This document shows, piece by piece, positions 7,211 to 33,156 of a stretch of 59,327 bases of DNA (within the stretch, counting starts at the first letter, position 1; each line of letters starts with the position of its first letter). This stretch comes from Pirellulales bacterium (lineage in GTDB: Bacteria; Planctomycetota; Planctomycetia; Pirellulales; UBA1268): positions 1 to 59,327 of the forward strand of contig JBIIQM010000006.1 in NCBI GenBank assembly GCA_044342075.1, given 5' to 3'. Under the pieces are notes generated by a model. It saw only the letters and a program-made list of their open reading frames with translations, did no database searches and had not been told where the DNA came from. Position numbers and translations under genes: made by a program.

Positions 7211-7888
7211 ATGCATACCTTTCTCGCGAAATGCGCCGCGCTCGCGGTGCTCTTGGGCGGCTTTTTCGTAACGGGCGATGTTGCGAAACTGGCCGAGCAG
7301 GGCACGAAACTGCTCAACGCCACGACGGTGCCGGACACTGGCCCGGCCGAAGACGCTTTTCCGCCGGCGCCAGCCCTAGCCTCCCCGTATCAGGCCGCCG
7401 CTCCCGCGCCTCCCCAGCCCGTCCCGTCGCCGGCACAGCCGGAGGCCCAATCAGCGGTGGCTGCGATGCAGACTGCCCCTGAGCCGGTTCCCACGCCACA
7501 CCCTCGTGCCCCACTGGGCCACCGCGTCACCCGTCCCGTCCCCCCCGCCGACTCGCCGGCGGCCCTCGAGCTGTCGACGCTGCGAGCGGGAGACCGGCTG
7601 CTTGTCTGGGTCGGCCGCTCTCCCTCCACGATGGCGCTGATCGCCTACGACATCGTCGATCCGGCCGCGGGCGAGGCCCTCGAGCACCGGCACCTGTTCG
7701 AAGACGAAGACGCTGCCGTGCACGCCGTGCCCCGGCGGGTGCAGATTGCGGGCGACTCCATCCGGGACGGCTTGATCATGCGCAGCGGCATGCTCCGGCT
7801 GCTGCCGGCAGGCATCGTGCATGGCGCCGGCACGCCGCCGCAGGCCGAAGTGATCGGCCCGGTCCGGGCGATGCAAGTGCAGCGGTAG
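7211..7888 (+). CDS. Hypothetical exported protein with a Pro/Ala-rich linker
   Basis: Hydrophobic N-terminus MHTFLAKCAALAVLLGGFFV; GC3-biased codons. Confidence 0.6.
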   Translation: MHTFLAKCAALAVLLGGFFVTGDVAKLAEQGTKLLNATTVPDTGPAEDAFPPAPALASPYQAAAPAPPQPVPSPAQPEAQSAVAAMQTAPEPVPTPHPRAPLGHRVTRPVPPADSPAALELSTLRAGDRLLVWVGRSPSTMALIAYDIVDPAAGEALEHRHLFEDEDAAVHAVPRRVQIAGDSIRDGLIMRSGMLRLLPAGIVHGAGTPPQAEVIGPVRAMQVQR

Positions 7889-7938
7889 ACCGCTTCGGGA
7901 CGAAGCGATCTGCTTCGACAGGCTGAAGCCTGTCCTAC
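7885..7938. repeat. Mixed REP doublet (second family plus main family)
   Basis: GTAGACCGCTTCGGGACGAAGCG followed by GACAGGCTGAAGCCTGTCCTAC. Confidence 0.85.
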
Positions 7939-7949
7939 CCAAAGCCGGG

Positions 7950-9638
<1,689 letters not shown>

Positions 9639-20443: not shown

Positions 20444-21085
20444 ATGACCACCGAATTCACGAGCCCCCGTACATCATCGACCGCCACCGCCCGCGCGTGG
20501 ACGCTCTGGGCCGCCTGCTTCGTCGCGGGCTGCGGCCTCCTGGCTGCGGTGACCGTGCCCGGCTGCTCGGCCGGTGGTTCCGGCGGGTCATCGGCCGCTG
20601 CTGAGCCGGCCAAGTCGGCGGTGATCACGTTCCTCGATGCCGTGAAGCGCGGCGACGATGCGGCGGCCAGCGGCATGCTCACCAAAGTGGCTCGCGCCAA
20701 GACTCAGGAACTCGGCCTTTCGGTCGCGCCGCCCGTGAATCCCACGGCCACATACGCCGTTCGCGACTGCGAGGTGGTGGGCGAAGGGGGCGACCTCGTG
20801 CATGTGGGCACCACCTGGACCGACACGGATGCCGACGGTTTTACGAGCACGGATAACGTCGTCTGGGTCGTCCGCCTCGATCCGGAGGGCTGGCGGGTGG
20901 TCGGCATGGCGATGAAGATCTTCGACGATCTCCCGCCGCTGCTTTTGAATTTCGAAGACCCCGAAGACATGCTCGCCAAGCAGGAGCAGGTCGCGGCCGA
21001 GTTGCAGAAGCGGTCCCAGCAGGCCGCCGCCAAGGCCCAGGCCGAAAGCCGCACCGCCCAGGGCCCCGCCCCCACGCAAAAGTAG
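20444..21085 (+). CDS. Hypothetical lipoprotein (NTF2-like fold possible)
   Basis: Lipobox-like VPGC; FLDAVKRGD..LTKVA; GWRVVGMA. Confidence 0.7.
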   Translation: MTTEFTSPRTSSTATARAWTLWAACFVAGCGLLAAVTVPGCSAGGSGGSSAAAEPAKSAVITFLDAVKRGDDAAASGMLTKVARAKTQELGLSVAPPVNPTATYAVRDCEVVGEGGDLVHVGTTWTDTDADGFTSTDNVVWVVRLDPEGWRVVGMAMKIFDDLPPLLLNFEDPEDMLAKQEQVAAELQKRSQQAAAKAQAESRTAQGPAPTQK

Positions 21086-21210
21086 GACAGGCTTCAGCCT
21101 GTCTCCCGTAGGACAGGCCTCCGTGCCTGTCTCCGGTGGGGTAGGCTTCCAGCCTGCCTCCGGACACCCGGCCTCTGCGCCGGTCCTCGACAGGCTGAAG
21201 CCTGTCCTAC
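21082..21210. repeat. REP cluster (4-5 units)
   Basis: GTAGGACAGGCTTCAGCCTGTC, GTAGGACAGGCCTCCGTGCCTGTC, GTGGGGTAGGCTTCCAGCCTGCC and an inverted terminal copy. Confidence 0.9.
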
Positions 21211-21264
21211 GTGGGCGCCAGGCAGCCTCAAGGCTGCCCGAATTCCCGGCATATACGCCGGTTC

Positions 21265-21292
21265 TTGACACCGGGCGGTCCACGGATAGCCT
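21265..21292 (+). promoter_or_regulatory. Candidate sigma70-like promoter for the Cys/His-rich gene
   Basis: TTGACA-N16-TAGCCT. Confidence 0.4.
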
Positions 21293-21502
21293 AATTGCCC
21301 AGATTCCCCAGGCGGAAATCTTTCGCCAACCGTCAGCCCTTGCAGGGGAGTGCTGCCGGTTGTCCGAACGAGGTCCCGCCCAAGGTTTCTTCGGTTGACC
21401 GCTCGTTTTGCTGCGGTCCGGTGGCCGTCCCGGATCCGGTGTGTTTCGTGACGGCTTCAGGAACGCATGACGCGTTAAGTTCCCTTTTATTGGAGGAATG
21501 TG

Positions 21503-22210: not shown

Positions 22211-23842
22211 TCACTGGGCGGGTGGTGGCTGGAGCCTGCGCAGCAGCCGGCCGCGGCGCGGGGGCGGGGCGGCGTCGGGATTCTCGGCCGCGGCGGCGGC
22301 CCGCTCGGCGCGGCGCTTCGCCACCTCGTCGAGCACGCCGCCTACGAGATCGATCACCGCGTCGGCCGACGGGTTTTGGCTGATCTCCGCCGGCAGTTTC
22401 GACTTGATGTCGTTGAGCTTCTCGGCCGTGGTCTCGGCCGGCTTCGCCCCCTCTTGCGGTTCCGATCCCGCCTCCGCTTGCGATCCCGCCTCCGCTTGCC
22501 CTTCCGATAGCTTCGGCGGCACCCAGTTGGGCGCGGGTGCACCCGCGGGCCGCGGCGGCAGCGGCTGCCCGCGCGACCGCAGCCGATCGATCAATTCCGC
22601 GGCCACCTCGCCGGCCGTCGCCCGGATCGAGCCGTCGAAATTCACCTTCGGCTCGCCGAGCATCCCGCCGATGCCGACGGAAATCGACTTCCCCGCGAGC
22701 GACGCCAGCAGCGGGCGATCGGCGGGCAAATCAGCCGGGATCGGCAGCGCGAGCTTCAGGTCGAGCGACTTGTCGTCGAGCCCGACGGAGCCGCTCGAGT
22801 TGATGTCGAGCCGCTGTCCGGGCTTCGCCAGCGGCAGGCCGAATTCGAGCCCCTTGTGCCAGACGCGGCGGTCGGCCAGATGAAATTCCACGTTTGAATC
22901 ATCGGCAATCCGCACGGAGGTGGGGAGCTGCAGCCTTCCGGGCAGCGATTGCATGACGTTCTTCGCGAGCGGTCCTGGGCCGAGATCCACCTCGTGCATC
23001 GAGAGCGTTCCCGCGAGCCGGGCCGCCTGCGGCGCCCCGACGGGAAAAGTCGCGCCGTCGAGCTTCAGCGAAAAGCGGCCGCTCGTCCGCGTGGCATCGG
23101 CCATGACAGGCGCGATGTAGGCCAAAACGCCCTGCGCCACGTTGGCCTCGAGCTTTGCGTCCTTGAGCAGTTGCACGCGATCGACCGTCCATTCGCTGAA
23201 ATTCCCGTCGGGCGAGGGCGCGAGCCGGGCCTTGATGTCGGTGGGGTCGCTCACCCAAACGTCCGGCGCCCAGGGACCTTCGATCTTCGCGATCGCGTCT
23301 TCCACTTCGAATCGCACCCGCACCGGGCTCTTGCGCGGGCCGGCCGGGCCGGTGCTGACGCCGGTCGGCGCCGGCGGCAGGAACAGTCCGGTCAGGTTGG
23401 AGTCGCGGTTGGCTTCGAAAACGATGTCGGCCTCGAGCCCCTCGATCCGAAAGCGGCCGAGATCGCCGAGCGAGAGCAGCATCGCGGCCAGGCCGTGGTT
23501 CCCTTCGATCCGCTTGATGGAGACGGGCGGGCGGGCGCCGTTCCGCGGCACCACGCGAATATCCTCGATCACGATCGGCCCCGACCAGCCAACCTGCGCC
23601 TTCCCGATCGTCACGTCGGCCTGCAATCCCGGCACGGCCTGGGCGATCCACCGGGAGAGCCTCGCGGGATCGGAGGCGAGCCATGGCACGAATCCGGCCC
23701 CAAGCAGGATTGCGGCCACGCCGGCCAAGACGGCCGTCCAGATCGTCGTTGCGGCCAGCGATGAGAGAAAGTGCCGGGGAGCCTGAGGTTTGGCCGCGGC
23801 AGTGTCCGCTGCGGCGGATGGCTGATCCTTCGGGCGGGTCAT
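22211..23842 (-). CDS. Membrane-anchored AsmA-like hypothetical protein
   Basis: N-terminal TM helix, beta-rich body, C-terminal SGSVGLD..LDL..IGGMLGEP pattern. Confidence 0.6.
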   Translation of the reverse strand: MTRPKDQPSAAADTAAAKPQAPRHFLSSLAATTIWTAVLAGVAAILLGAGFVPWLASDPARLSRWIAQAVPGLQADVTIGKAQVGWSGPIVIEDIRVVPRNGARPPVSIKRIEGNHGLAAMLLSLGDLGRFRIEGLEADIVFEANRDSNLTGLFLPPAPTGVSTGPAGPRKSPVRVRFEVEDAIAKIEGPWAPDVWVSDPTDIKARLAPSPDGNFSEWTVDRVQLLKDAKLEANVAQGVLAYIAPVMADATRTSGRFSLKLDGATFPVGAPQAARLAGTLSMHEVDLGPGPLAKNVMQSLPGRLQLPTSVRIADDSNVEFHLADRRVWHKGLEFGLPLAKPGQRLDINSSGSVGLDDKSLDLKLALPIPADLPADRPLLASLAGKSISVGIGGMLGEPKVNFDGSIRATAGEVAAELIDRLRSRGQPLPPRPAGAPAPNWVPPKLSEGQAEAGSQAEAGSEPQEGAKPAETTAEKLNDIKSKLPAEISQNPSADAVIDLVGGVLDEVAKRRAERAAAAAENPDAAPPPRRGRLLRRLQPPPAQ

Positions 23843-23929
23843 GAAAAACGCTCCTGAAAAATGTAGACCGCTATTGTACGTGATGTGCCCGCGGAAAGAT
23901 TTGCTAGACTTCCGCTGTCAGAAATCAAC

Positions 23930-24002
23930 GCGGGTGTAGCTCAGTTGGTAGAGCACTGGCTTCCCAAGCCAACGGTCGCGAGTTCGAATCTCGTCGCCCG
24001 CT
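23930..24002 (+). tRNA. tRNA-Gly(CCC), CCA not encoded
   Basis: Acceptor stem GCGGGTG/CGCCCGC, D-arm GCTCAGTTGGTAGAGC, anticodon loop TTCCCAA, T-loop TTCGAAT; TGcTAGACT extended -10 at 23902-23910. Confidence 0.95.
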
Positions 24003-25083
24003 TTTTCTTCGAATCGGCACAGGCTTTCTCCCACTCCAGCCAGGCCGCTCGGGCTTCCTCCGCCTCAGCCGCTCTAGCGGCCTTGCGATACGCCATTCCT
24101 GCCTCCCCGGGGGTATCGAACGTGCCGAGGTGGCAAGCCTTTCCGCCTCGCTTGATTTGCGCCGAAAACCGCCGGCCGTTTTTCCTTACACCCACCGGCA
24201 GGCCGGTCGCCTTCGAGTGCTGGGTGCGATTCCGTTGATTCATGGCGGGCGAAGCCGGGCGCAGGTTGCAAAGCCTCGCATCGAGTTTATTTCGGTTGCG
24301 ATGATCAACGAGATCTGGAAGCGGTCCTCTCTTCATGCGCCAGACACAATGGTGCAAAAAGACGATCCGGCGTTTCCCGTCCAATGCCATTGAAGTGGCC
24401 GGATATCCATCGTGGAGATACCAACTTTTCGATCTCACAAAGCCGGCCAAGTCCGCGTCGACGGTGATGCGTTTCGGGTCGATGCCCGCCCCCTGCCTGC
24501 GGCCCGTGGATCGCCGCTTCATGGGAGTTCGCTGCATTGCCGCCGTTACGCGAGTAATTAAATGAGCGGCCGCGGCGGTTGCTGAAAGCACTTCGGGCCC
24601 GCCGGCTTCTCTCGCGATGAGGAAGTCCCGAAAAACCGCGGCGGCATTTCGCGCATCGCGTAGCGATACAAACGAACCGAGACAAACCCTGCGCCCCTCG
24701 AACGACGCTTTGACTTCATACGGTTTTTTACGGTTGCGATGGCGGTAAACACCGCAATTGCCTGCCTTTGCGACTGCCTTACGGGAGTTCAGTTGATTCA
24801 GCGAGGCCGTCGCCGCTCGCAGGTTACGGAGCCGGTTGTTCAATGGGTCGTGGTCGACGTGGTCGATGATGCGCGGCACCTCACCAAAAGCCAAAAACCA
24901 GACAAACCGATGCTGAAGCCAAGTCTTCGCTTTGCCGCCATGGCGAACGGTTCCGATCGCGTAGCCGCCCTTGTGTCGTTGCCATCCGTAACAATCGACC
25001 TGTTTACGAAAGCGTTTATCAACCCGATATTCGCCTGGCTTCAGGCTATTTCGCCCGGTACCACGGCGGCGTCCTGCTGGCAT
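23941..25083 (-). CDS. Phage-type HNH endonuclease with two tandem HNH+AP2 units
   Basis: Unit 1: QHRFVW..IDHVDHDPLNNRLRNLR..N..GV..CLGSF. Unit 2: LHHCVW..VDHRNRNKLDARLCNLR..N..GV..HLGTFDTPGEAGMAY. DNA is visibly more AT-rich than the flanks. Confidence 0.88.
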   Translation of the reverse strand: MPAGRRRGTGRNSLKPGEYRVDKRFRKQVDCYGWQRHKGGYAIGTVRHGGKAKTWLQHRFVWFLAFGEVPRIIDHVDHDPLNNRLRNLRAATASLNQLNSRKAVAKAGNCGVYRHRNRKKPYEVKASFEGRRVCLGSFVSLRDARNAAAVFRDFLIAREAGGPEVLSATAAAAHLITRVTAAMQRTPMKRRSTGRRQGAGIDPKRITVDADLAGFVRSKSWYLHDGYPATSMALDGKRRIVFLHHCVWRMKRGPLPDLVDHRNRNKLDARLCNLRPASPAMNQRNRTQHSKATGLPVGVRKNGRRFSAQIKRGGKACHLGTFDTPGEAGMAYRKAARAAEAEEARAAWLEWEKACADSKKKRATRFELATVGLGSQCSTN

Positions 25084-25213
25084 TGCATTGCCCTCGTGCG
25101 GTTCCCCTTCAGCAACCAATCTTTTTTCTTTGTCGAGGATTTGAAAAAAGACTATATCTCTCCGTAGATTTTACGTCCTTGCACAAGCTCCAACCCCGAC
25201 GGGATTCTCCACC

Positions 25214-25891
25214 ATGGCCAAAAAAACCAAGTCTTCCGGCATCTCGGCTGATGTGATCCACCTTCCGGCCGACGTGGTCAAGCGGGCGAAGGATCTGCTG
25301 ACGGGCGCCGAAAAGAAGTTTTTTGACTCGAGCTTCGGCGCCTCGCTCACCAAGGCCACGCAGGCCCAGGTGCAATCGGCCGTGAAGCAGGCCCGCATCC
25401 TCCGCAACAAGTGGCGGGATCTCTATCAGGAGCAGACCCGTTCGTCGAAGCGCGGTGGAAAGCCCGCCGCCGGTGCCGGCAACGCCCGCACGCAACACAA
25501 GCACGAGCTCTTCGCGGGAGCCGTCGAGCGGTTCGAGAAGCGGCTGTCCGACCTGAAGGAGTATGTCGCGGAGGCAGTGTCGGCCCCGAAGGCCGCTGCC
25601 AAGCCGGCGAAGAAGTCCGTCGCCAAGCCTGCGGTCGCCAAGAAGGCAAAAGCGTCTGCCAAGCCCGTGAAGGCGATTTCGAAGAAGGCCCGCCAGGCGG
25701 CCTCCCTCACCACGCTCGCCAAGTCGCCCGCCGCGCAGGCGATCCGGTTCGATGGCGCGAAGCAGCGTTCGGCGCTGACGGCCGCGAAGGCGGGCCGCAT
25801 CAAGATGCAGGGCCTCGACACGCAACGCGTGAGCCACATTGCCGCCCGCGGCCGGCGGGCCCAGGCCCGTCGCGACATGCGTTCGCGGTAG
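25214..25891 (+). CDS. Highly basic Lys/Ala-rich hypothetical protein
   Basis: MAKKTK start; APKAAAKPAKKSVAKPAVAKKAK tract; host-like codon usage. Confidence 0.75.
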   Translation: MAKKTKSSGISADVIHLPADVVKRAKDLLTGAEKKFFDSSFGASLTKATQAQVQSAVKQARILRNKWRDLYQEQTRSSKRGGKPAAGAGNARTQHKHELFAGAVERFEKRLSDLKEYVAEAVSAPKAAAKPAKKSVAKPAVAKKAKASAKPVKAISKKARQAASLTTLAKSPAAQAIRFDGAKQRSALTAAKAGRIKMQGLDTQRVSHIAARGRRAQARRDMRSR

Positions 25892-25961
25892 CCAAGAGTT
25901 TTTCCGTCCCGGAAGTCCCCGCGTTTGATCGCTCGTTCATGGACGACGCACCCTTCGTGCG

Positions 25962-27812
25962 ATGCCCATGCAACCGCTGCCGATCGATGTCGCGCTCGAC
26001 CACCATCTGGCCGGCCGCCGCGACGAGGCCGAACGGATCTACCGTGAGATTCTCGACGGGGATCCAGACCACCGCGACGCCCTGCATCTGCTGGGAGTCA
26101 TCGCCTATGAGGCCGGTCGGCACGAAGAGGCGCTCGATCGGATCCGGCTCGCCATCGCCGCCGACGGCAGCCACGCCACGTTTCACAACAGCCTCGGGGC
26201 GGTCTACCAGGCACTCGGCGACCTGCCCCGCGCCGTCTCCGCCTACCAGACGAGCATCCTGCTCGACATCGACTATGCCGACGCCCACGGCAATCTCGGC
26301 CTCGCGCTCCGCGAACTGGGCAGGACGGCCGAATCGGTGGAGAGCCTGCGTCGGGCCTTGCAGCTGAAGCCCGGCAATCCAAACCTCCTCAACAGCCTCG
26401 GCATCACGCTGCGTTCACTTGGCCGCATCGCCGAGGCGGCTGATTGCTATCGCGGCGCGATCGCAGCCCGCGAAGCCTTCTGGGAGCCCCACAGTAACCT
26501 CGGCAACATCCTCAAAGACCAGTGCCGCACCGACGAGGCGATCGCGCATTACCGTCGCGCGATCGAACTTGCGCCGCACGTTCCCATCATCCACAGCAAC
26601 CTGCTCTGCGCGTTGCACTATCGCGATGGGATCAAGGCGGGCGAGCTCGCCGCGGCCCACGACGAGTTTGAGAAGTCGTTTGGCGCGCCGCTGCGATCGG
26701 CCTGGAAGCCGCACAAAAATGGCCGCGATCCAGACCGCCCGCTGCGGCTGGGATTCATTTCGCCCGACCTGCACCGCCATCCGGTCGGCTATTTTCTGAT
26801 CGGTCTCGTAGAGCATCTCGACGCCTCGCAGGCGCAGGTGTTTTGCTACAGCACGGGCGGCACGCCCGACGATCTCACCGCTCGCCTGCGGGCGGCGTCA
26901 ACGCAATGGCATGACGTCGGCCCGCTTGCCGACGACGGGATCGCGGAGAAAATCCGCGAAGATCGCATCGACATCCTCTTCGACCTCGCGGGGCATACCG
27001 GCAATAACCGGCTGCTCGTGATGGCCCGCAAGCCGGCGCCGATCCAGATCACCTGGGCGGGATACGTCGGCACGGCGGGGCTTGCGGCGATCGACCATCT
27101 GCTGGCCGACCGGTTCGAGGTGCCGCCCGAACTGGAGCATCACTACCGCGAAAACGTGCTGCGGATGCCAAATGCCTATGTCTGCTACGAGCCGCCGGCC
27201 GCTCCGCCGGTGGCCCCGTTGCCCGCCCTCGACCGCGGCTACGTCACGTTCGGCAGCTTCTCGAATCCCGCCAAACTCGGCCCGCAGATCGCGGCTCCTT
27301 GGGCGAGGATCCTCGAACGCGTGCCGAATTCGCGGCTCGTCCTCAAATACAAGGGGCTCGCAGATCCGATGCATACCGGTCGGCTGCGGGATTATTTCGC
27401 GGAGCAGGGGGTCGATTTGGCTCGCGTGGACTTGCAGGGAGACTCGTCGCAATCCGAATTGCTGCCGCATTACGATGGCATCGACATCGCCCTCGATCCG
27501 TTTCCCTATGGGGGCGGTGTGACGACGCTCGAGGCCCTCTGGATGGGCGTGCCCGTGGTCACGCTGCCCGGCGAGACGTTCGCGAGCCGGCATGCGCTGA
27601 CGCATCTGGCCAACGTGGGCGTCGAGGGCACGATCGCCCGCGATCTCGATCATTACGTCGATCTGGCCGCCGGGCTGGCGGAGGATCTTCCCTCGCTCGC
27701 CGCGCTCCGCGCGAGCCTGCGCAAGCAGATGGCGGCCTCGCCGCTCTGCGATGGCGAGCGATTCGCGAGCGACTTCATGGAGCTCATGCGGGGCGTGTGG
27801 CGGGCAAAGTAG
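25962..27812 (+). CDS. TPR-containing O-GlcNAc-transferase-like glycosyltransferase (GT41/SPINDLY family)
   Basis: About 6 TPRs; LRLGFISPDLHRHPV, DILFDLAGHT, APIQ, FGSFSN..K, DIALDPFPYGGGVTTLEALWMGVPV. Confidence 0.92.
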   Translation: MPMQPLPIDVALDHHLAGRRDEAERIYREILDGDPDHRDALHLLGVIAYEAGRHEEALDRIRLAIAADGSHATFHNSLGAVYQALGDLPRAVSAYQTSILLDIDYADAHGNLGLALRELGRTAESVESLRRALQLKPGNPNLLNSLGITLRSLGRIAEAADCYRGAIAAREAFWEPHSNLGNILKDQCRTDEAIAHYRRAIELAPHVPIIHSNLLCALHYRDGIKAGELAAAHDEFEKSFGAPLRSAWKPHKNGRDPDRPLRLGFISPDLHRHPVGYFLIGLVEHLDASQAQVFCYSTGGTPDDLTARLRAASTQWHDVGPLADDGIAEKIREDRIDILFDLAGHTGNNRLLVMARKPAPIQITWAGYVGTAGLAAIDHLLADRFEVPPELEHHYRENVLRMPNAYVCYEPPAAPPVAPLPALDRGYVTFGSFSNPAKLGPQIAAPWARILERVPNSRLVLKYKGLADPMHTGRLRDYFAEQGVDLARVDLQGDSSQSELLPHYDGIDIALDPFPYGGGVTTLEALWMGVPVVTLPGETFASRHALTHLANVGVEGTIARDLDHYVDLAAGLAEDLPSLAALRASLRKQMAASPLCDGERFASDFMELMRGVWRAK

Positions 27813-28147: not shown

Positions 28148-28209
28148 GTTTTCAAGCCACGAGCCAGCAACGCCAACCACGAGTTTTGCCACGAGCACGG
28201 GAGACCGCC

Positions 28210-31200
28210 ATGAGCCTCTTCGACACGCTTTTTCCGCCGCGCATGCGCAGCCCCGCCATTCGCCGGCCATCCGCCCGCACACGGGCGACGATTCGCAGGC
28301 ATCGCGACGGCGCGTTCGGCGAGCAACTCGAGCAGCGGCTCGCGCTCGCGGTGACGTTCGCTCCTCGGTTCACGATCGATGCCCCCGGCGACATCACGTT
28401 CGCCGCAAACACGATGATGACCGCCGTGGAGGGACAGCCCGGCACCGCGACCCAGGTCACCAATGCGCAGAACGGGACGGGCACAAACCCCAACGTCTGG
28501 AACGACGACTTCTGGAACATGCAATACATCAACGTCGATCCGACGGGCGGTAATTTTGCCTCCAGCTCGGCCGACCTGTCGCTTCCGGCCGGCGCCAACG
28601 TGCTCTTTGCGGGGCTGTACTACGGCTCCCGCACTAACACGAATGTCAGCGACGACGTCCTCAAGACGGTGAAGTTCAAGGGCCCCGGCGACGCCTCCTA
28701 CACCACGCTCACGGGCGCCGCCGGCCCGAATCAGGTCGCGCTCCTCGGCAAGGTCATCGGCCAGGTCAGTAACCTCCCGCCCAACGTCCAGACGTACGGC
28801 GCGTTCGCCGATGTGACCGATCTCGTGTTCGCGCGCGGCCAGGGCACCTACACGATCGCCAACGTGAAGGGTGACCCAGGCATCATCAACCATTTCGCCG
28901 GCTGGTCGCTCGTCGTGGCCTACGACGCCCCCGGAGCGAATCTTCGCAACCTGAGCGTATTCGACGGCTTCGCCGACGTGAGCGCTTCGAACCCGAACGT
29001 CGAGGTCAACTTCACGGGATTCACGGCGCCCCCTTCGGGACCCGTGAAGGCGAATCTTGGCTTCGTCTCCTACGAAGGTGACTTGGGCATCGACAACGAC
29101 ACGGCGTCGTTTTTCGGCGGCGTCAGCACCACCCAGCTCTCCAACGCGACGAATCCAGCCGACAATTTCTTCAACAGTTCGATCTCCACCAACGGCGTGA
29201 CCGTCACGAGCAAAAATCCGAATTACCTGAATCAGCTCGGCTTCGACGCCGACATCCTCAACATCGATGGCAAGATCGCCAACGGCGCCACCTCCGCGAA
29301 GCTCACGCTCACGAGCACGCAGGACCAGTACTATCCGGCGGTCGTCACCAGCGCGATCGACCTCTACGCGCCGAAGGTCTCGGTCGACAAGTCGGTCGTG
29401 GACGTCAATGGGGGCATCGTCGAACCGGGCGACACGCTACGCTACACGATCACGGTCGCCAACGATGCAAACGCCTTCGACACGGCGGCGAACGTGATTC
29501 TCAATGACTCCATTCCTTCATTCACCACCTACAAGCCGGGCAGCCTGTTCATCACTGCCGGTGCCAATTCCTCACCGACCGCCAAGACGGACGCCATCGA
29601 CGCCGACCAGGCCGAGGCCTTGCCGACCGGTGCCACGCCACCGACCACATCGGTCCGGTTCCAACTCGGCACCGGAGCCGGCGGGGGCGCCCCGGCCGTG
29701 GGTGGCGAACTGGCGAAGGGTGAATCCACCACCCTGACCTTCGAAGTCACGGTGAACGCGGGGTTTCCGAGCGAGGGCTTCATCACCAATAAGGCCATCG
29801 TGAACTACACTTCGAAGTTCACCGGCAAGCCCTTCAGCACGAGCGACACGGCAGTGATCCAGTGCCCGCCGGTCATCGATCTGGCGATCACGAAGACAAG
29901 CCCCGGCAGCGAGTACGTGCCCGGCGCACCCGTCAACTACTCGTTCACCGTCACGAACAACGGCCCGGCAGCCTCGCCCGGCTCTATCGTCACTGACACG
30001 CTGCCGTCGCAGACGACGTTCAACCCGGCGATCAATCCGGGCTGGACGCTCGTCGGCTCAACGCTGAGCTACGTCACGCCCGCGCTCGTCTCCGGCGGCT
30101 CGACGTCGTTCGCGCTCGTGCTCCTACCTGCGTCCGATCGCCTCGGACCCCTCGTGAACACGGCCTCCGTCGCCGTACCCCCGGGCTTTTTTGATCGCAA
30201 CCTGTCCAACAACACCGCCACCGAGACTGACACCGCCAAACCTACAGTCACGCTCGGCGTCACCAAGACCGACAACAGCGACACCTACGTCCCGGGCAGC
30301 CCCGTCACCTACACGATCGTCGTGACGAACACCGGACCCAGCGCACTCGTCGGCGGCACCGTCGTCGATCTTCTCCCGGCGGTCGCCACCAGCGGCACTT
30401 GGACCACCTCCACCACAGGCAGCGCAAGCGTCTTGCCGACAAGCGGCGGCAACAACATCAACGCCACTGTCAACATCCCCAAGGGCGACTCCGTCACCTT
30501 CACCTACATCGTTCAGACCAAGTCCGACGCCACCGCTGACCTCGTCAACACCGTCGTCGTCACGCCGCCCGCCGGCCAGGGATCCAGCACCAGCTCCACC
30601 GACCGCGACACCGCCACGCCCCAGGTCAATCTCACCGTCACCAAGACTGACGGCAGCGATACCTACATCCCGGGCAACCCCGTCACCTACACGATCGTCG
30701 TGACGAACACTGGACCCAGCGCACTCGTCGGCGGCAACGTCACCGATCTCCTCCCGGCGGTCGCCACCAGCGGCACCTGGACCACTTCGACCACGGGCAG
30801 CGCAAGCGTCTTGCCGACAAGCGGCGGCAACAACATCAACGCCACCGTCAACATTCCCAAGGGCGACTCCGTCACCTTCACCTACATCGTCCAGACCAAG
30901 TCCGACGCCACCGCCGACCTCGTCAACACCGTCGTCGTCACGCCACCCGAAGGCCAGGGATCCAGCACCAGCTCCACAGACCGTGACACCGCCACGCCCC
31001 AGGTCGATCTCGCCGTCACGAAGACCCGCACTTCGCCGCTGCCGGTCATCGCCGGCGAGGTCGTGACCTACTCAATCGTTGTCACGAGCAATGGGCCCAG
31101 CTCGATCACGACCTTCACCGGTACCGACGTCTCCGTCCCCGGCCTGCTCTCGCCCACCTATAGCGTCGACACAGGCACGTATAACCCGAACACCGGCATC

Positions 31201-33156
31201 TGGACGGCCAACCCCGGCGACACCTTCGACGACGGTGAGTCCGTCACGTTCACGCTCTCCGGCACCGTCCCAGCTGGCGCCACCGGCACCCTCACCAACA
31301 CCGCCACCGGCACCCCGCCGATCTTTGACCCGAACCCGGACAACAACACCTCCACCGCCACCGACACGATCGTCGTGAAGCCCGTCCTCTCGATTACGAA
31401 GACGGACGGGAAAGGGACCTACGTCCCGGGAACATCCACCACCTACACGATCATCGCCACGAACGCAGGCCCGAGCTTCCTCACGGGCGGCACGGTCTCT
31501 GACCCGCTTCCCGCGCAGGTCGCAAGCGCCACGTGGACGGCGGTCTATTCCGCCGGCTCGAGCGGCCCCGAGAGCGGCAGCGGCCCGCTGAACGAGACCG
31601 TCAACCTTGCCCCGGGCGGCACGGCCACGTTCCAGTTCACCGTGCAGATCAAACCCGACGCGACCGGCGACCTCGTGAACACCGTCACGATCACTCCGCC
31701 GCCAAACACGCAGGGCAACACGGCCACGGCCACAGACACCAACACGCTCTCGAGCCCACAACTGCTGCTCAACGTGACGAAGACTGACGGCAAGACGACC
31801 TACCTGCCCGGCCAGACATTCCCCTACACGATCGTCGTCAGCAACTCGGGCCCCAGCACCATGGTCGACGGCACGGTGAACGATCCGCTCGCGGCGCAGG
31901 TGGCGAGCGCCTCGTGGACGGCTGTCTATTCAGCCGGCTCGAGTGGCGCGCCGTCCGGCTCCGGCGGCATTACCAACGAGAAGATCACGCTGCTGCCGGG
32001 CGGCAGCGCGACATTCACGCTCACCGTGACGATCCGGCCCGACGCCTTCGGCCAGATGGACAACACCGTCACGCTCACGCCTCCGGCCGGTGCCTCAGTC
32101 GATCCGCAGTCGGTGCTCTCGGCGACCGACACCAACTTCGGCCCCGAGCCGCCGGCGTCGATCGGTGGCGCCCTCGTCGTCGGCAGCGACGATGGCTGCA
32201 ACGGCCCGCCGTGGGTTCGGGTGCTCAGCCCCGATTCCGGCGAAGAACTCTCGCGGTTCCTCGCCTATGACTCGCGGTTCCGCGGCAGCGTCCGCGTGGC
32301 CACGGGCGACGTCACGGGCGACGGGGTGGCGGAGATCATCACGGCCCCGGGCCGCAATGCGATCGGCGAGGTGCGGGTGTTCCAGCAGGCTCTCGGCGGC
32401 TGGGCTGAGCTCACGCAATATCGCACGCTCGCTTTTGGCCCGGGTTACCGCGGCGGCGTCGAGGTGGCTGTAGCCGACATCGACAACGACGGCGACAACG
32501 ACATTGTCACCGCTATGTCGATCCGGACTGGGATGGTAAACGTGTTTCGAGTGAACACCGGCGTCGGCGTTGTGGATCCTGTGGCCAACACGCCGTTCAA
32601 GTCGTTCCGCGGCGCCCCCGCCGGCACGAACAACGGCGTGATGATCTCAGCCGGCGACTACATCCTCGGCGGCCCTGCCGAGATCGCGGTCGGGACGAAT
32701 TCCGGCACGCGGGCGCTGGTGCGGGTTTTCGATGTCAGCGGCACCCCGACGGTCGTGCGGAGCTTCAAACCGTTCGCGAACAACTTCCGCGGCGGCGTGA
32801 CGCTCTCGACATCCGACTACGACGGCAACGGATCGCTCGACCTGATCGTCGGCGCCGGCCTCAACGGCGGCTCGAGGGTCGAGGTCTGGAACCCCTCGAC
32901 GGGCACCAAGATCGCCCAGACTTCCGCGTTCGGCAGCCTGGTGAAGCCAAACGCTCGCGTCTTCGCGGTCTTTGGAAGTGCGGCCGACGGCTTCATCGGC
33001 CCCGATTCGACGCTCTACGGCGTGCAGGGCCTCAATGGCGGCCGCGGATCGAAGGGTGTCTGGAAGGTTCTCGGTGGAACCGCAAATTCACTCGTCAACT
33101 CGCAGTCGAGTCTCCCCCCGCTCCGCATCGCCCCGATCGCCCTGCAGCTCGGATAA
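28210..33156 (+). CDS. Large extracellular Thr-rich protein: planctomycete export motif, several DUF11 (Ig-like) repeats, C-terminal FG-GAP-like domain
   Basis: EQLEQRLALA; repeated (D)LxVTKT..PG..VTYTIVVTNTGPS units; VRVATGDVTGDGVAEII and DIDNDGDNDI. Confidence 0.88.
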   Translation: MSLFDTLFPPRMRSPAIRRPSARTRATIRRHRDGAFGEQLEQRLALAVTFAPRFTIDAPGDITFAANTMMTAVEGQPGTATQVTNAQNGTGTNPNVWNDDFWNMQYINVDPTGGNFASSSADLSLPAGANVLFAGLYYGSRTNTNVSDDVLKTVKFKGPGDASYTTLTGAAGPNQVALLGKVIGQVSNLPPNVQTYGAFADVTDLVFARGQGTYTIANVKGDPGIINHFAGWSLVVAYDAPGANLRNLSVFDGFADVSASNPNVEVNFTGFTAPPSGPVKANLGFVSYEGDLGIDNDTASFFGGVSTTQLSNATNPADNFFNSSISTNGVTVTSKNPNYLNQLGFDADILNIDGKIANGATSAKLTLTSTQDQYYPAVVTSAIDLYAPKVSVDKSVVDVNGGIVEPGDTLRYTITVANDANAFDTAANVILNDSIPSFTTYKPGSLFITAGANSSPTAKTDAIDADQAEALPTGATPPTTSVRFQLGTGAGGGAPAVGGELAKGESTTLTFEVTVNAGFPSEGFITNKAIVNYTSKFTGKPFSTSDTAVIQCPPVIDLAITKTSPGSEYVPGAPVNYSFTVTNNGPAASPGSIVTDTLPSQTTFNPAINPGWTLVGSTLSYVTPALVSGGSTSFALVLLPASDRLGPLVNTASVAVPPGFFDRNLSNNTATETDTAKPTVTLGVTKTDNSDTYVPGSPVTYTIVVTNTGPSALVGGTVVDLLPAVATSGTWTTSTTGSASVLPTSGGNNINATVNIPKGDSVTFTYIVQTKSDATADLVNTVVVTPPAGQGSSTSSTDRDTATPQVNLTVTKTDGSDTYIPGNPVTYTIVVTNTGPSALVGGNVTDLLPAVATSGTWTTSTTGSASVLPTSGGNNINATVNIPKGDSVTFTYIVQTKSDATADLVNTVVVTPPEGQGSSTSSTDRDTATPQVDLAVTKTRTSPLPVIAGEVVTYSIVVTSNGPSSITTFTGTDVSVPGLLSPTYSVDTGTYNPNTGIWTANPGDTFDDGESVTFTLSGTVPAGATGTLTNTATGTPPIFDPNPDNNTSTATDTIVVKPVLSITKTDGKGTYVPGTSTTYTIIATNAGPSFLTGGTVSDPLPAQVASATWTAVYSAGSSGPESGSGPLNETVNLAPGGTATFQFTVQIKPDATGDLVNTVTITPPPNTQGNTATATDTNTLSSPQLLLNVTKTDGKTTYLPGQTFPYTIVVSNSGPSTMVDGTVNDPLAAQVASASWTAVYSAGSSGAPSGSGGITNEKITLLPGGSATFTLTVTIRPDAFGQMDNTVTLTPPAGASVDPQSVLSATDTNFGPEPPASIGGALVVGSDDGCNGPPWVRVLSPDSGEELSRFLAYDSRFRGSVRVATGDVTGDGVAEIITAPGRNAIGEVRVFQQALGGWAELTQYRTLAFGPGYRGGVEVAVADIDNDGDNDIVTAMSIRTGMVNVFRVNTGVGVVDPVANTPFKSFRGAPAGTNNGVMISAGDYILGGPAEIAVGTNSGTRALVRVFDVSGTPTVVRSFKPFANNFRGGVTLSTSDYDGNGSLDLIVGAGLNGGSRVEVWNPSTGTKIAQTSAFGSLVKPNARVFAVFGSAADGFIGPDSTLYGVQGLNGGRGSKGVWKVLGGTANSLVNSQSSLPPLRIAPIALQLG
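30259..31014 (+). repeat. Near-identical 378-bp tandem duplication (two DUF11 domains)
   Basis: 30259-30636 and 30637-31014 match at the nucleotide level with few substitutions. Confidence 0.9.

Follow-up and report, generated by a model that had tools for sequence, protein, structure and literature searches.

Directly 3' of the tRNA-Gly(CCC) gene in a Pirellulales bacterium lies a free-standing gene for a predicted tandem HNH endonuclease of 380 amino acids (aa), set between the tRNA gene and a conserved 225-aa gene and having no intron or intein context (Table 1). The stretch analysed as a whole, here called the window, comprises 59,327 nucleotides (nt) of contig JBIIQM010000006.1 (assembly GCA_044342075.1), and its source is a metagenome-assembled genome of 172 contigs (G000), which is compared below with congeneric species (G001-G015) and with runs (X numbers) and contigs or other loci (L numbers), among them those from lake metagenomes and libraries. 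An earlier note on this DNA had placed the gene immediately downstream of the tRNA gene and convergent with it, and the two in fact overlap: the stop codon (23941-23943) lies inside the tRNA gene and therefore the last ~20 codons of the nuclease gene are antisense tRNA. The same antisense tail is present in homologues P0002-P0004, its residues 361-380 are predicted to be disordered in the AlphaFold model (predicted local distance difference test, pLDDT, 29-36), and it is probably a read-through into the flank. The longest version of the open reading frame (ORF) runs over 23941..25119 (-) and gives 392 aa from an upstream TTG at 25119, but the ATG at 25083 is the likely start, because all four full-length close homologues are of 380 aa and begin at the matching Met. 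As the note had also seen, the DNA here is more AT-rich than its flanks, GC being 0.52-0.62 across 23750-25400 and 0.65-0.70 on either side; the nuclease gene itself has a GC of 0.593 and a third-position GC (GC3) of 0.637, against a GC3 of 0.80-0.85 in four neighbouring genes and a genome GC of 0.676. The low GC3 and the patchy distribution described below mark it as a foreign, laterally acquired gene.

Table 1. Features of the tRNA-Gly(CCC) flank and of the corresponding places in related lineages (window positions unless a contig is named).
Feature	Position	Strand	Basis or remark
tRNA-Gly(CCC), variant allele	23930..24002	+	ARAGORN; alignments
Tandem endonuclease gene, 380 aa: HNH_3, AP2-like, linker, HNH_3, AP2-like	23941..25083	-	ATG at 25083
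C-terminal ORF tail, antisense to tRNA, 62 nt	23941..24002	-	Translation; model
HNH_3 domain, unit 1; predicted catalytic D74, H75, N87, N96 (380-aa numbering)	24793..24912	-	Pfam 42.6 bits
AP2-like module, unit 1: three strands and a helix; degenerate	24607..24750	-	Model; alignment to homologues
HNH_3 domain, unit 2; predicted catalytic D260, H261, N273, N282	24235..24360	-	Pfam 37.4 bits
AP2-like module, unit 2	24061..24195	-	Sub-threshold PF00847; model
Segment absent from empty alleles	24006..25212		blastn boundaries 24006/25213 against G009; contig joint in X15, X16
Stretch deleted in decaying allele of sister lineage	24048..24254		L040 aligns to 24047, resumes at 24255
AT-rich spacer, nuclease start to downstream gene	25120..25213		Final ~35 nt resemble ancestral tRNA-to-gene spacer
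225-aa gene, function unknown, conserved	25214..25891	+	Directly follows tRNA in empty alleles
Fic-carrying region, related lake metagenome lineage	L043:7623-9400 (also L042:1131-1495)	+	Fic ORF 7752-9014
PEP-CTERM/PATR cases	L045 (G011:C245:16100-18700), L044 (G012:C75:6300-8600)		

The earlier note had read the protein as two divergent copies of a unit made of an HNH and an AP2-like part, and the HNH half of that claim stands on firm ground. Pfam finds HNH_3 (PF13392) twice, the whole protein scoring 73.9 bits over 2 stretches and each half on its own passing the cut-off of 24.8 bits; the two halves are 30% identical across 136 aa (E 3e-13) and both fall in PHROGs families annotated as HNH endonuclease (best E 8.8e-57), while a search of NCBIfam with the protein gave no match. 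Unit 1 aligned to the homing enzyme I-HmuI (1U3E) matches D74, H75, N87 and N96 of that enzyme. Across an alignment of 23 double-unit proteins that are only 26-34% identical to this one, D74, H75, N87 and D260, H261, N273 are invariant and N96 and N282 nearly so (90% or more), and both predicted catalytic centres keep intact residues of the D-H...N...N pattern, where the note had allowed that one unit might lack them. Since both are conserved across such distant two-unit proteins, it seems that both centres are needed.

The AP2 half of the claim fared less well. PF00847 scores 22.7 bits (E 1.3e-4) with a 68-aa fragment of unit 2, below its curated cut-off of 33.3, and so the modules are called AP2-like here and are not taken as AP2 members; the module of unit 1 has no Pfam match of its own and lines up with parts of homologues P0078 and P0101 for which an AP2 score is obtained. 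An AlphaFold model (mean pLDDT 76.6, predicted template modelling score 0.44, the relative placement of the two units being unreliable) repeats one order of elements twice, namely a small sheet, then strand-strand-helix, then three strands and a helix. The strand-strand-helix parts at residues 73-99 and 259-284 (pLDDT mostly 85-94) have the beta-beta-alpha-metal fold, and the modules that follow are modelled as strands 112-114, 122-128 and 131-138 with helix 141-159 in unit 1 (pLDDT ~70-80) and as strands within 299-322 plus a helix in unit 2 (pLDDT 85-93). The top Foldseek match is 1u3e, that is I-HmuI (probability 1.00, 66 columns, root-mean-square deviation, rmsd, 2.9, E 0.011), and the AP2/ERF proteins 1gcc (rmsd 1.1) and 7et5 (rmsd 1.5) follow with 42 columns each (probability 1.00, E 0.14-0.27), WRINKLED1 being also among the best; all of the best E-values are weak (0.011 to 0.27), and the AP2/ERF matches hold for the chain as a whole and not for a given unit.

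Comparison of the locus between lineages makes plain that the nuclease segment is a true insertion, polymorphic between and within closely related lake planctomycetes. An orthologue of the 225-aa gene is present in 14 of the 15 congeners, and in G009, G008, G006 and G002 it comes ~25-50 nt after tRNA-Gly(CCC), these being the empty sites that the earlier note had called for, and in G004 the gap is of ~200 nt; blastn aligns G009 up to 24006 and again from 25213, with 42 nt in place of 1206. The nuclease gene itself was found in one of the 15 congeneric species (G010, where it is 88% identical and divided between the ends of two contigs) and in 0 of 25 more distant relatives. Closer still are contigs from two RNA-library runs of one study, X15 and X16, which join 24005 to 25209 via 38 nt resembling the G009 spacer. 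Over 23600-24005 (406 nt) the X16 contig has 7 differences from the window, three of them listed outside the tRNA, and the X15 contig 17, with 8 listed outside, and the mismatch counts thus bound the differences from the variant tRNA allele of the window at no more than 4 in X16 and 9 in X15, compared with 13 for the wild type. Given the low count in X16, the site is very probably empty, and the tRNA next to it of the variant type, in a strain that shares ~98% identity with this one. Inside the nuclease gene the sole cover from X15 and X16 is one 222-nt contig at depth 3 (24295-24516), whereas the DNA runs X2 and X3 each yield one contig spanning the tRNA and the whole nuclease gene up to 25500.

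A short tract around the nuclease gene seems to have been exchanged between lineages. In the left flank the identity to the window is 92.0% for G009, 89.0% for G010 and 87.8% for L043, and two flanking genes show a synonymous divergence (dS) of 0.25-0.26 to G009 as against 0.35-0.44 to L041; G009 is thus the nearest relative in the flanks, yet it is empty. A comparison of single sites puts G000 with G009 in the flanks and with G010 at all 13 variable tRNA sites, and again over 25176-25237, where 15 sites group it with G010 and 3 do not, before the grouping with G009 resumes beyond. From this pattern an exchanged tract of ~23935-25237 can be delimited, which takes in the tRNA and nuclease genes together with the spacer and reaches eight codons into the 225-aa gene. 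A second short tract, at 21000-21400, groups the window with G010 over G009 (37 versus 16 informative sites), suggesting frequent recombination among these lineages.

Once in place, the gene appears to have been kept working, and in one case to have decayed. The same intact 1143-nt ORF is found in two other contigs, L039, whose copy has a nucleotide identity of 99.0%, and the 172.9-kb L041 (88.5%); three further 380-aa proteins are known, and both carrier lineages as well as P0004 have the ORF undamaged. Compared between these two lineages, the gene shows a nonsynonymous divergence (dN) of 0.072 and a dS of 0.32, giving a dN/dS of 0.22 (unit 1, 0.135; unit 2, 0.32), ratios which indicate purifying selection on both catalytic units. 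A decaying allele exists beside the full-length one of L041: L040 has lost AP2-like module 2 to an internal deletion, beyond which its frame is shifted and runs on into the antisense tRNA, the product (P0005) being of 324 aa, while L040 is identical to L041 over window 24293-25119 (825 nt), over 24003-24047 and in the right flank (25238-25900), and 98.5% identical in the left flank. The G010 assembly breaks at 24048-24292, the same place as the L040 deletion, perhaps from full and deleted alleles being mixed in the sample.

The adjoining tRNA is itself unusual. It differs from the wild-type tRNA-Gly(CCC) at 13 of 73 positions (6, 26, 29, 41-45, 50, 52, 59, 62 and 64), still folds as a cloverleaf and is the sole tRNA-Gly(CCC) of the genome, whereas the wild type is 100% identical in 12 of the 15 congeners (G001-G009, G011, G012 and G013); G010 carries the variant, and in G014 and G015, whose assemblies are 83-84% complete, no tRNA-Gly(CCC) was found. 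The variant allele stands at every HNH-occupied locus. A 42-nt stretch of it occurs, among species-representative genomes, in G010 only, is absent from the viral contigs searched, and is held by five metagenome contigs, three with the nuclease gene (L039 at 97.7%, L041 at 87% and L040 with its deletion) and two, L042 and L043, with a Fic gene; a donor search through 300 other genomes from the phylum brought up no tRNA closer than 88%. That the variant is a simple copy of a paralogue can be rejected, as its match to tRNA-Gly(GCC) (56/73) and to tRNA-Gly(UCC) (55/71) compares with 60/73 to the wild-type CCC gene, although its first 27 nt equal those of tRNA-Gly(GCC). A split-and-replace model of the tRNA is rejected likewise, there being no displaced wild-type remnant within 23500-25600. 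An 82-nt tRNA-Gly(GCC) that ARAGORN calls at window 32140-32221 (-), inside a 1656-aa ORF (28186-33156), is unlike the genome's other tRNA-Gly genes (31/73 identical to the CCC one) and probably a false call; a doubtful call of this sort is also met on contig C164.

The fused form turned out to have company; the earlier note had not recognised the architecture, that of a fused pair homing beside a chromosomal tRNA, as one already described. A HMMER search returned 67,064 cluster representatives at E <=0.001, only the protein's own cluster lying below 1e-30. Among the best 150 hits, 68 of 290-600 aa were scanned, which leaves aside five longer ones (738-3569 aa) and all the shorter ones, and 48 of these 68 relatives have at least two HNH_3 stretches (three of them have three), 10 have one and 10 none. 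The double HNH_3 architecture, as predicted from these domain matches, is not unique, the fused form recurring in many sequence clusters. One of the two-unit proteins, of 378 aa with two HNH_3 domains, is on a 19-kb viral contig (L082:2453-4500), where it stands directly upstream of a 292-aa ORF that may, by its look, be of capsid type. In phages, 914 of 50,697 records hold a homologue annotated as HNH or homing endonuclease, matched as single units over ~115-160 aa, and 0 of the 914 cover at least 80% of the nuclease protein.

The reading that we put forward, which could about equally well prove right or wrong, is that of a homing-type endonuclease gene which stands free, belongs to the HNH_3/AP2 kind known from phages, has two units fused into one protein and arrived laterally in the spacer 3' of tRNA-Gly(CCC). 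In keeping with it are the family of the protein, the foreign base composition of its gene, the clean pattern of presence and absence, the shortness of the exchanged tract, the purifying selection acting on either active site and the existence of an allele in decay; that the nuclease gene drives its own homing we infer. In such a scheme each HNH/AP2 unit would bind one half-site and nick one strand, so that a single polypeptide could make a double-strand break in the uninterrupted junction of tRNA 3' end and spacer, and one nick per strand would be the simplest reason for there being two centres. Should DNA uptake or transfer bring an occupied allele and an empty one together in the same cell, repair would then copy the gene together with short flanking tracts, and the occupied allele would be protected since its target site is split. 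The final ~20 codons would be mere read-through into the antisense tRNA.

Several observations weigh against self-driven homing, and with them part of the earlier claim of a selfish mobile element, of which the insertion with its empty alleles and the lack of an integrase stand and the activity of the element does not follow so readily. The genome has only one copy of the nuclease gene, and the exchanged tract fits its gain by G000 or its loss by G009 alike. The divergence of the gene about equals that of the flanking host genes between the same carrier lineages (dS 0.32 against 0.35-0.48), this comparison giving no sign of recent transfer between the two, and so it would point to a long residence and not to recent or active spread; given the dN/dS of 0.22 and the host-like dS, the nuclease has apparently been kept functional about as long as the lineages have been separated. 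Nor is the variant tRNA exclusive to the nuclease or proof of co-conversion, because it also stands beside Fic (L042, L043) and probably beside an empty slot. The association with tRNA genes that the note had expected of homologues does not generalise either: in genomic and viral contexts obtained with two query proteins, P0078 and P0011, a tRNA was within 2.5 kb at 0 of 18 viral loci, and among 36 genome loci five had a confident tRNA and a sixth an undetermined ARAGORN call, four of those five being one conserved candidate-phyla locus that holds a different, single HNH gene. In that locus (L078-L081, e.g. L081:2021-2722, from Saccharibacteria, Kaiserbacteria and Patescibacteria) the space from tRNA-Cys to tRNA-Leu is taken up by a 185-aa HNH ORF that overlaps the beginning of the latter gene, which makes it another free-standing HNH gene among chromosomal tRNAs. 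Lastly, the tRNA-Gly(CCC) flank is a general hotspot, because other lineages hold other cargo in the slot.

It is the hotspot that gives substance to the main rival, in which the nuclease is a passive cargo of the tRNA flank, or the relic of a larger island or prophage integrated at the tRNA, and its spread is not its own doing; genes would be carried in and out by some other machinery, or simply by homologous recombination of the flanks, and the altered tRNA would be an element-borne copy left by an old integration. At least four states of the slot can be told apart, namely empty, HNH, Fic and PEP-CTERM/PATR. In L042 and L043, which are one allele, the variant tRNA is followed by a 420-aa ORF of the Fic/DOC family (PF02661, E 3e-15) and then by the 225-aa gene, and in G011 and G012 a wild-type tRNA-Gly(CCC) is separated from the 225-aa gene by a gene for a ~640-aa PEP-CTERM/PATR repeat protein. 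Inserts of the Fic and of the HNH type have the variant tRNA in common and begin at the same point, immediately 3' of the tRNA and right after its T-run, as is a feature of tRNA islands, although the two cargos have no common sequence beyond a 12-mer. Of the 13 changes in the tRNA, ten are on the 3' side of the anticodon, which is what one would expect had the 3' part come from an integrating element, whereas the other three are in the 5' half, and the far end of the insert has no tRNA-derived direct repeat, no flanking repeats and no remnant of wild-type or variant tRNA over 23500-25600. The insert amounts to only ~1.2 kb. No integrase, transposase or phage family was found by Pfam within ~11 kb, that is among 16 neighbouring ORFs (12810-38854), 7 of which are without any Pfam match, and this agrees with what the earlier note had seen in the vicinity. 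The co-divergence of nuclease and host would suit a passenger, while purifying selection on both catalytic units would be unexpected of an inert relic. On these grounds the passenger or relic explanation is unlikely, though far from idle, and a homing gene is preferred to it.

A second alternative, which we regard as improbable, is that the protein has been domesticated, for instance as a nuclease against incoming phage or plasmid DNA or as an AP2-like DNA-binding regulator, and is kept by host selection. A dN/dS of 0.22 over a dS that matches host genes, and an ORF that has stayed intact in both carrier lineages and in P0004, are what such a role would leave behind. However the gene is absent from 14 of the 15 congeners, the nearest relative included, the populations that carry it also harbour alleles that are empty or deleted, its composition is still foreign, and it has neither partner genes nor a match in NCBIfam. 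That the ORF is an artefact, either two single-unit genes mis-joined in assembly, which the earlier note had allowed for, or a dead pseudogene, is an idea to which a source genome in many contigs and the break of the G010 contig inside the gene lend some colour, but with the same full-length ORF in the independent contigs L039 and L041, the spanning contigs of X2 and X3, three further proteins of the same length and a dN/dS of 0.22, it can be set aside as next to impossible.

The remaining surroundings are ordinary chromosomal ones, the neighbouring Pfam families being a sigma-54 activator, ApbE, a tetratricopeptide repeat (TPR) glycosyltransferase and an oxidoreductase; the 225-aa gene has no Pfam match. 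From 25950 onward, beyond the 225-aa gene, G009 (L030) is unrelated to the window (~45% identity), and a TPR/glycosyltransferase-41 gene at 25962-27812 is not at that place in G009 and is present in G010 and L041. A promoter and terminator scan gave one consensus match of each kind, to which no weight is given, the sigma-70-like one at 25141-25170 (+) being a consensus match only.

A wider proposal may be ventured, which is tentative and rather doubtful as a whole: tandem HNH_3/AP2 proteins might be a widespread and undescribed class of single-chain 'double nickase' homing enzymes, the HNH counterpart of single-chain LAGLIDADG enzymes, and the present member would home in the cellular chromosome of recombining, free-living lake planctomycetes at the junction formed by a tRNA 3' end, together with a substitute tRNA-Gly allele, by which a conserved RNA gene could be occupied and still keep its function. 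The fused form with both active sites conserved suggests, so far as alignments can tell, a simple way in which a nickase may turn into a monomer that cuts both strands. Homing genes pass through a cycle of gain, decay and loss, and the locus, where what would be a selfish nuclease gene is met in nature in the chromosome of a free-living bacterium, has its occupied, empty, decaying and differently filled alleles visible in lake metagenomes, which would make that cycle traceable outside phages and organelles. The replaced tRNA allele raises the further question of whether such cassettes bring their own copy of the adjoining gene.

What is known of HNH_3 homing enzymes comes mainly from phage proteins with a single domain, of which I-HmuI from Bacillus phage SPO1, whose structure is solved (1U3E), is a nicking enzyme. 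The HNH_3 core is common to it and to the nuclease described here, which aligns to residues 35-101 of its chain; I-HmuI is however intron-encoded and has one catalytic domain and a DNA-binding part of another type, whereas the present protein has two catalytic domains per chain and AP2-like modules, and its gene no intron. A family of free-standing phage HNH-AP2 homing endonucleases was reportedly noted by Magnani et al. in 2004 and by Wessler in 2005. The excerpted text of PMC5714182 names I-HmuI a homing endonuclease, puts HNH_3 and I-HmuI into one group (group 2) with NUMOD, HTH or AP2 binding modules, and within that excerpt makes no mention of two catalytic domains in one chain. The free-standing phage enzymes are alike in having an HNH_3 domain followed by an AP2-type module, as in that group, but their genes are single units, in contrast to a tandem gene which lies in a bacterial chromosome with no recognisable prophage and abuts a tRNA. 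In outline the locus also resembles that of SegB of phage T4, a free-standing endonuclease gene beside tRNA genes; according to PMC2330249, the conserved T-psi-C stem-loop sequence found in a tRNA gene is part of the recognition site of its enzyme, and its spread takes neighbouring tRNA sequence along, an intronless homing in a tRNA gene cluster. SegB differs in belonging to the GIY-YIG family and in acting between co-infecting phages, as compared with a double HNH protein in a cellular chromosome that is described from genes alone. Among the papers listed by searches of the literature outside subscription journals, none deals with a tandem HNH_3 homing enzyme, to judge by titles and abstract openings. 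In single-chain LAGLIDADG enzymes duplication and fusion have led to one asymmetric polypeptide that cuts both strands of a non-palindromic site; their fold and catalytic chemistry are unrelated to those of HNH, and by analogy only, the same advantage might be hypothesised as the reason why the two-unit HNH form recurs. A selfish phage gene of the HNH_3/AP2 type is already known, and what is unusual here is the fused form and its setting in the flank of a chromosomal tRNA.

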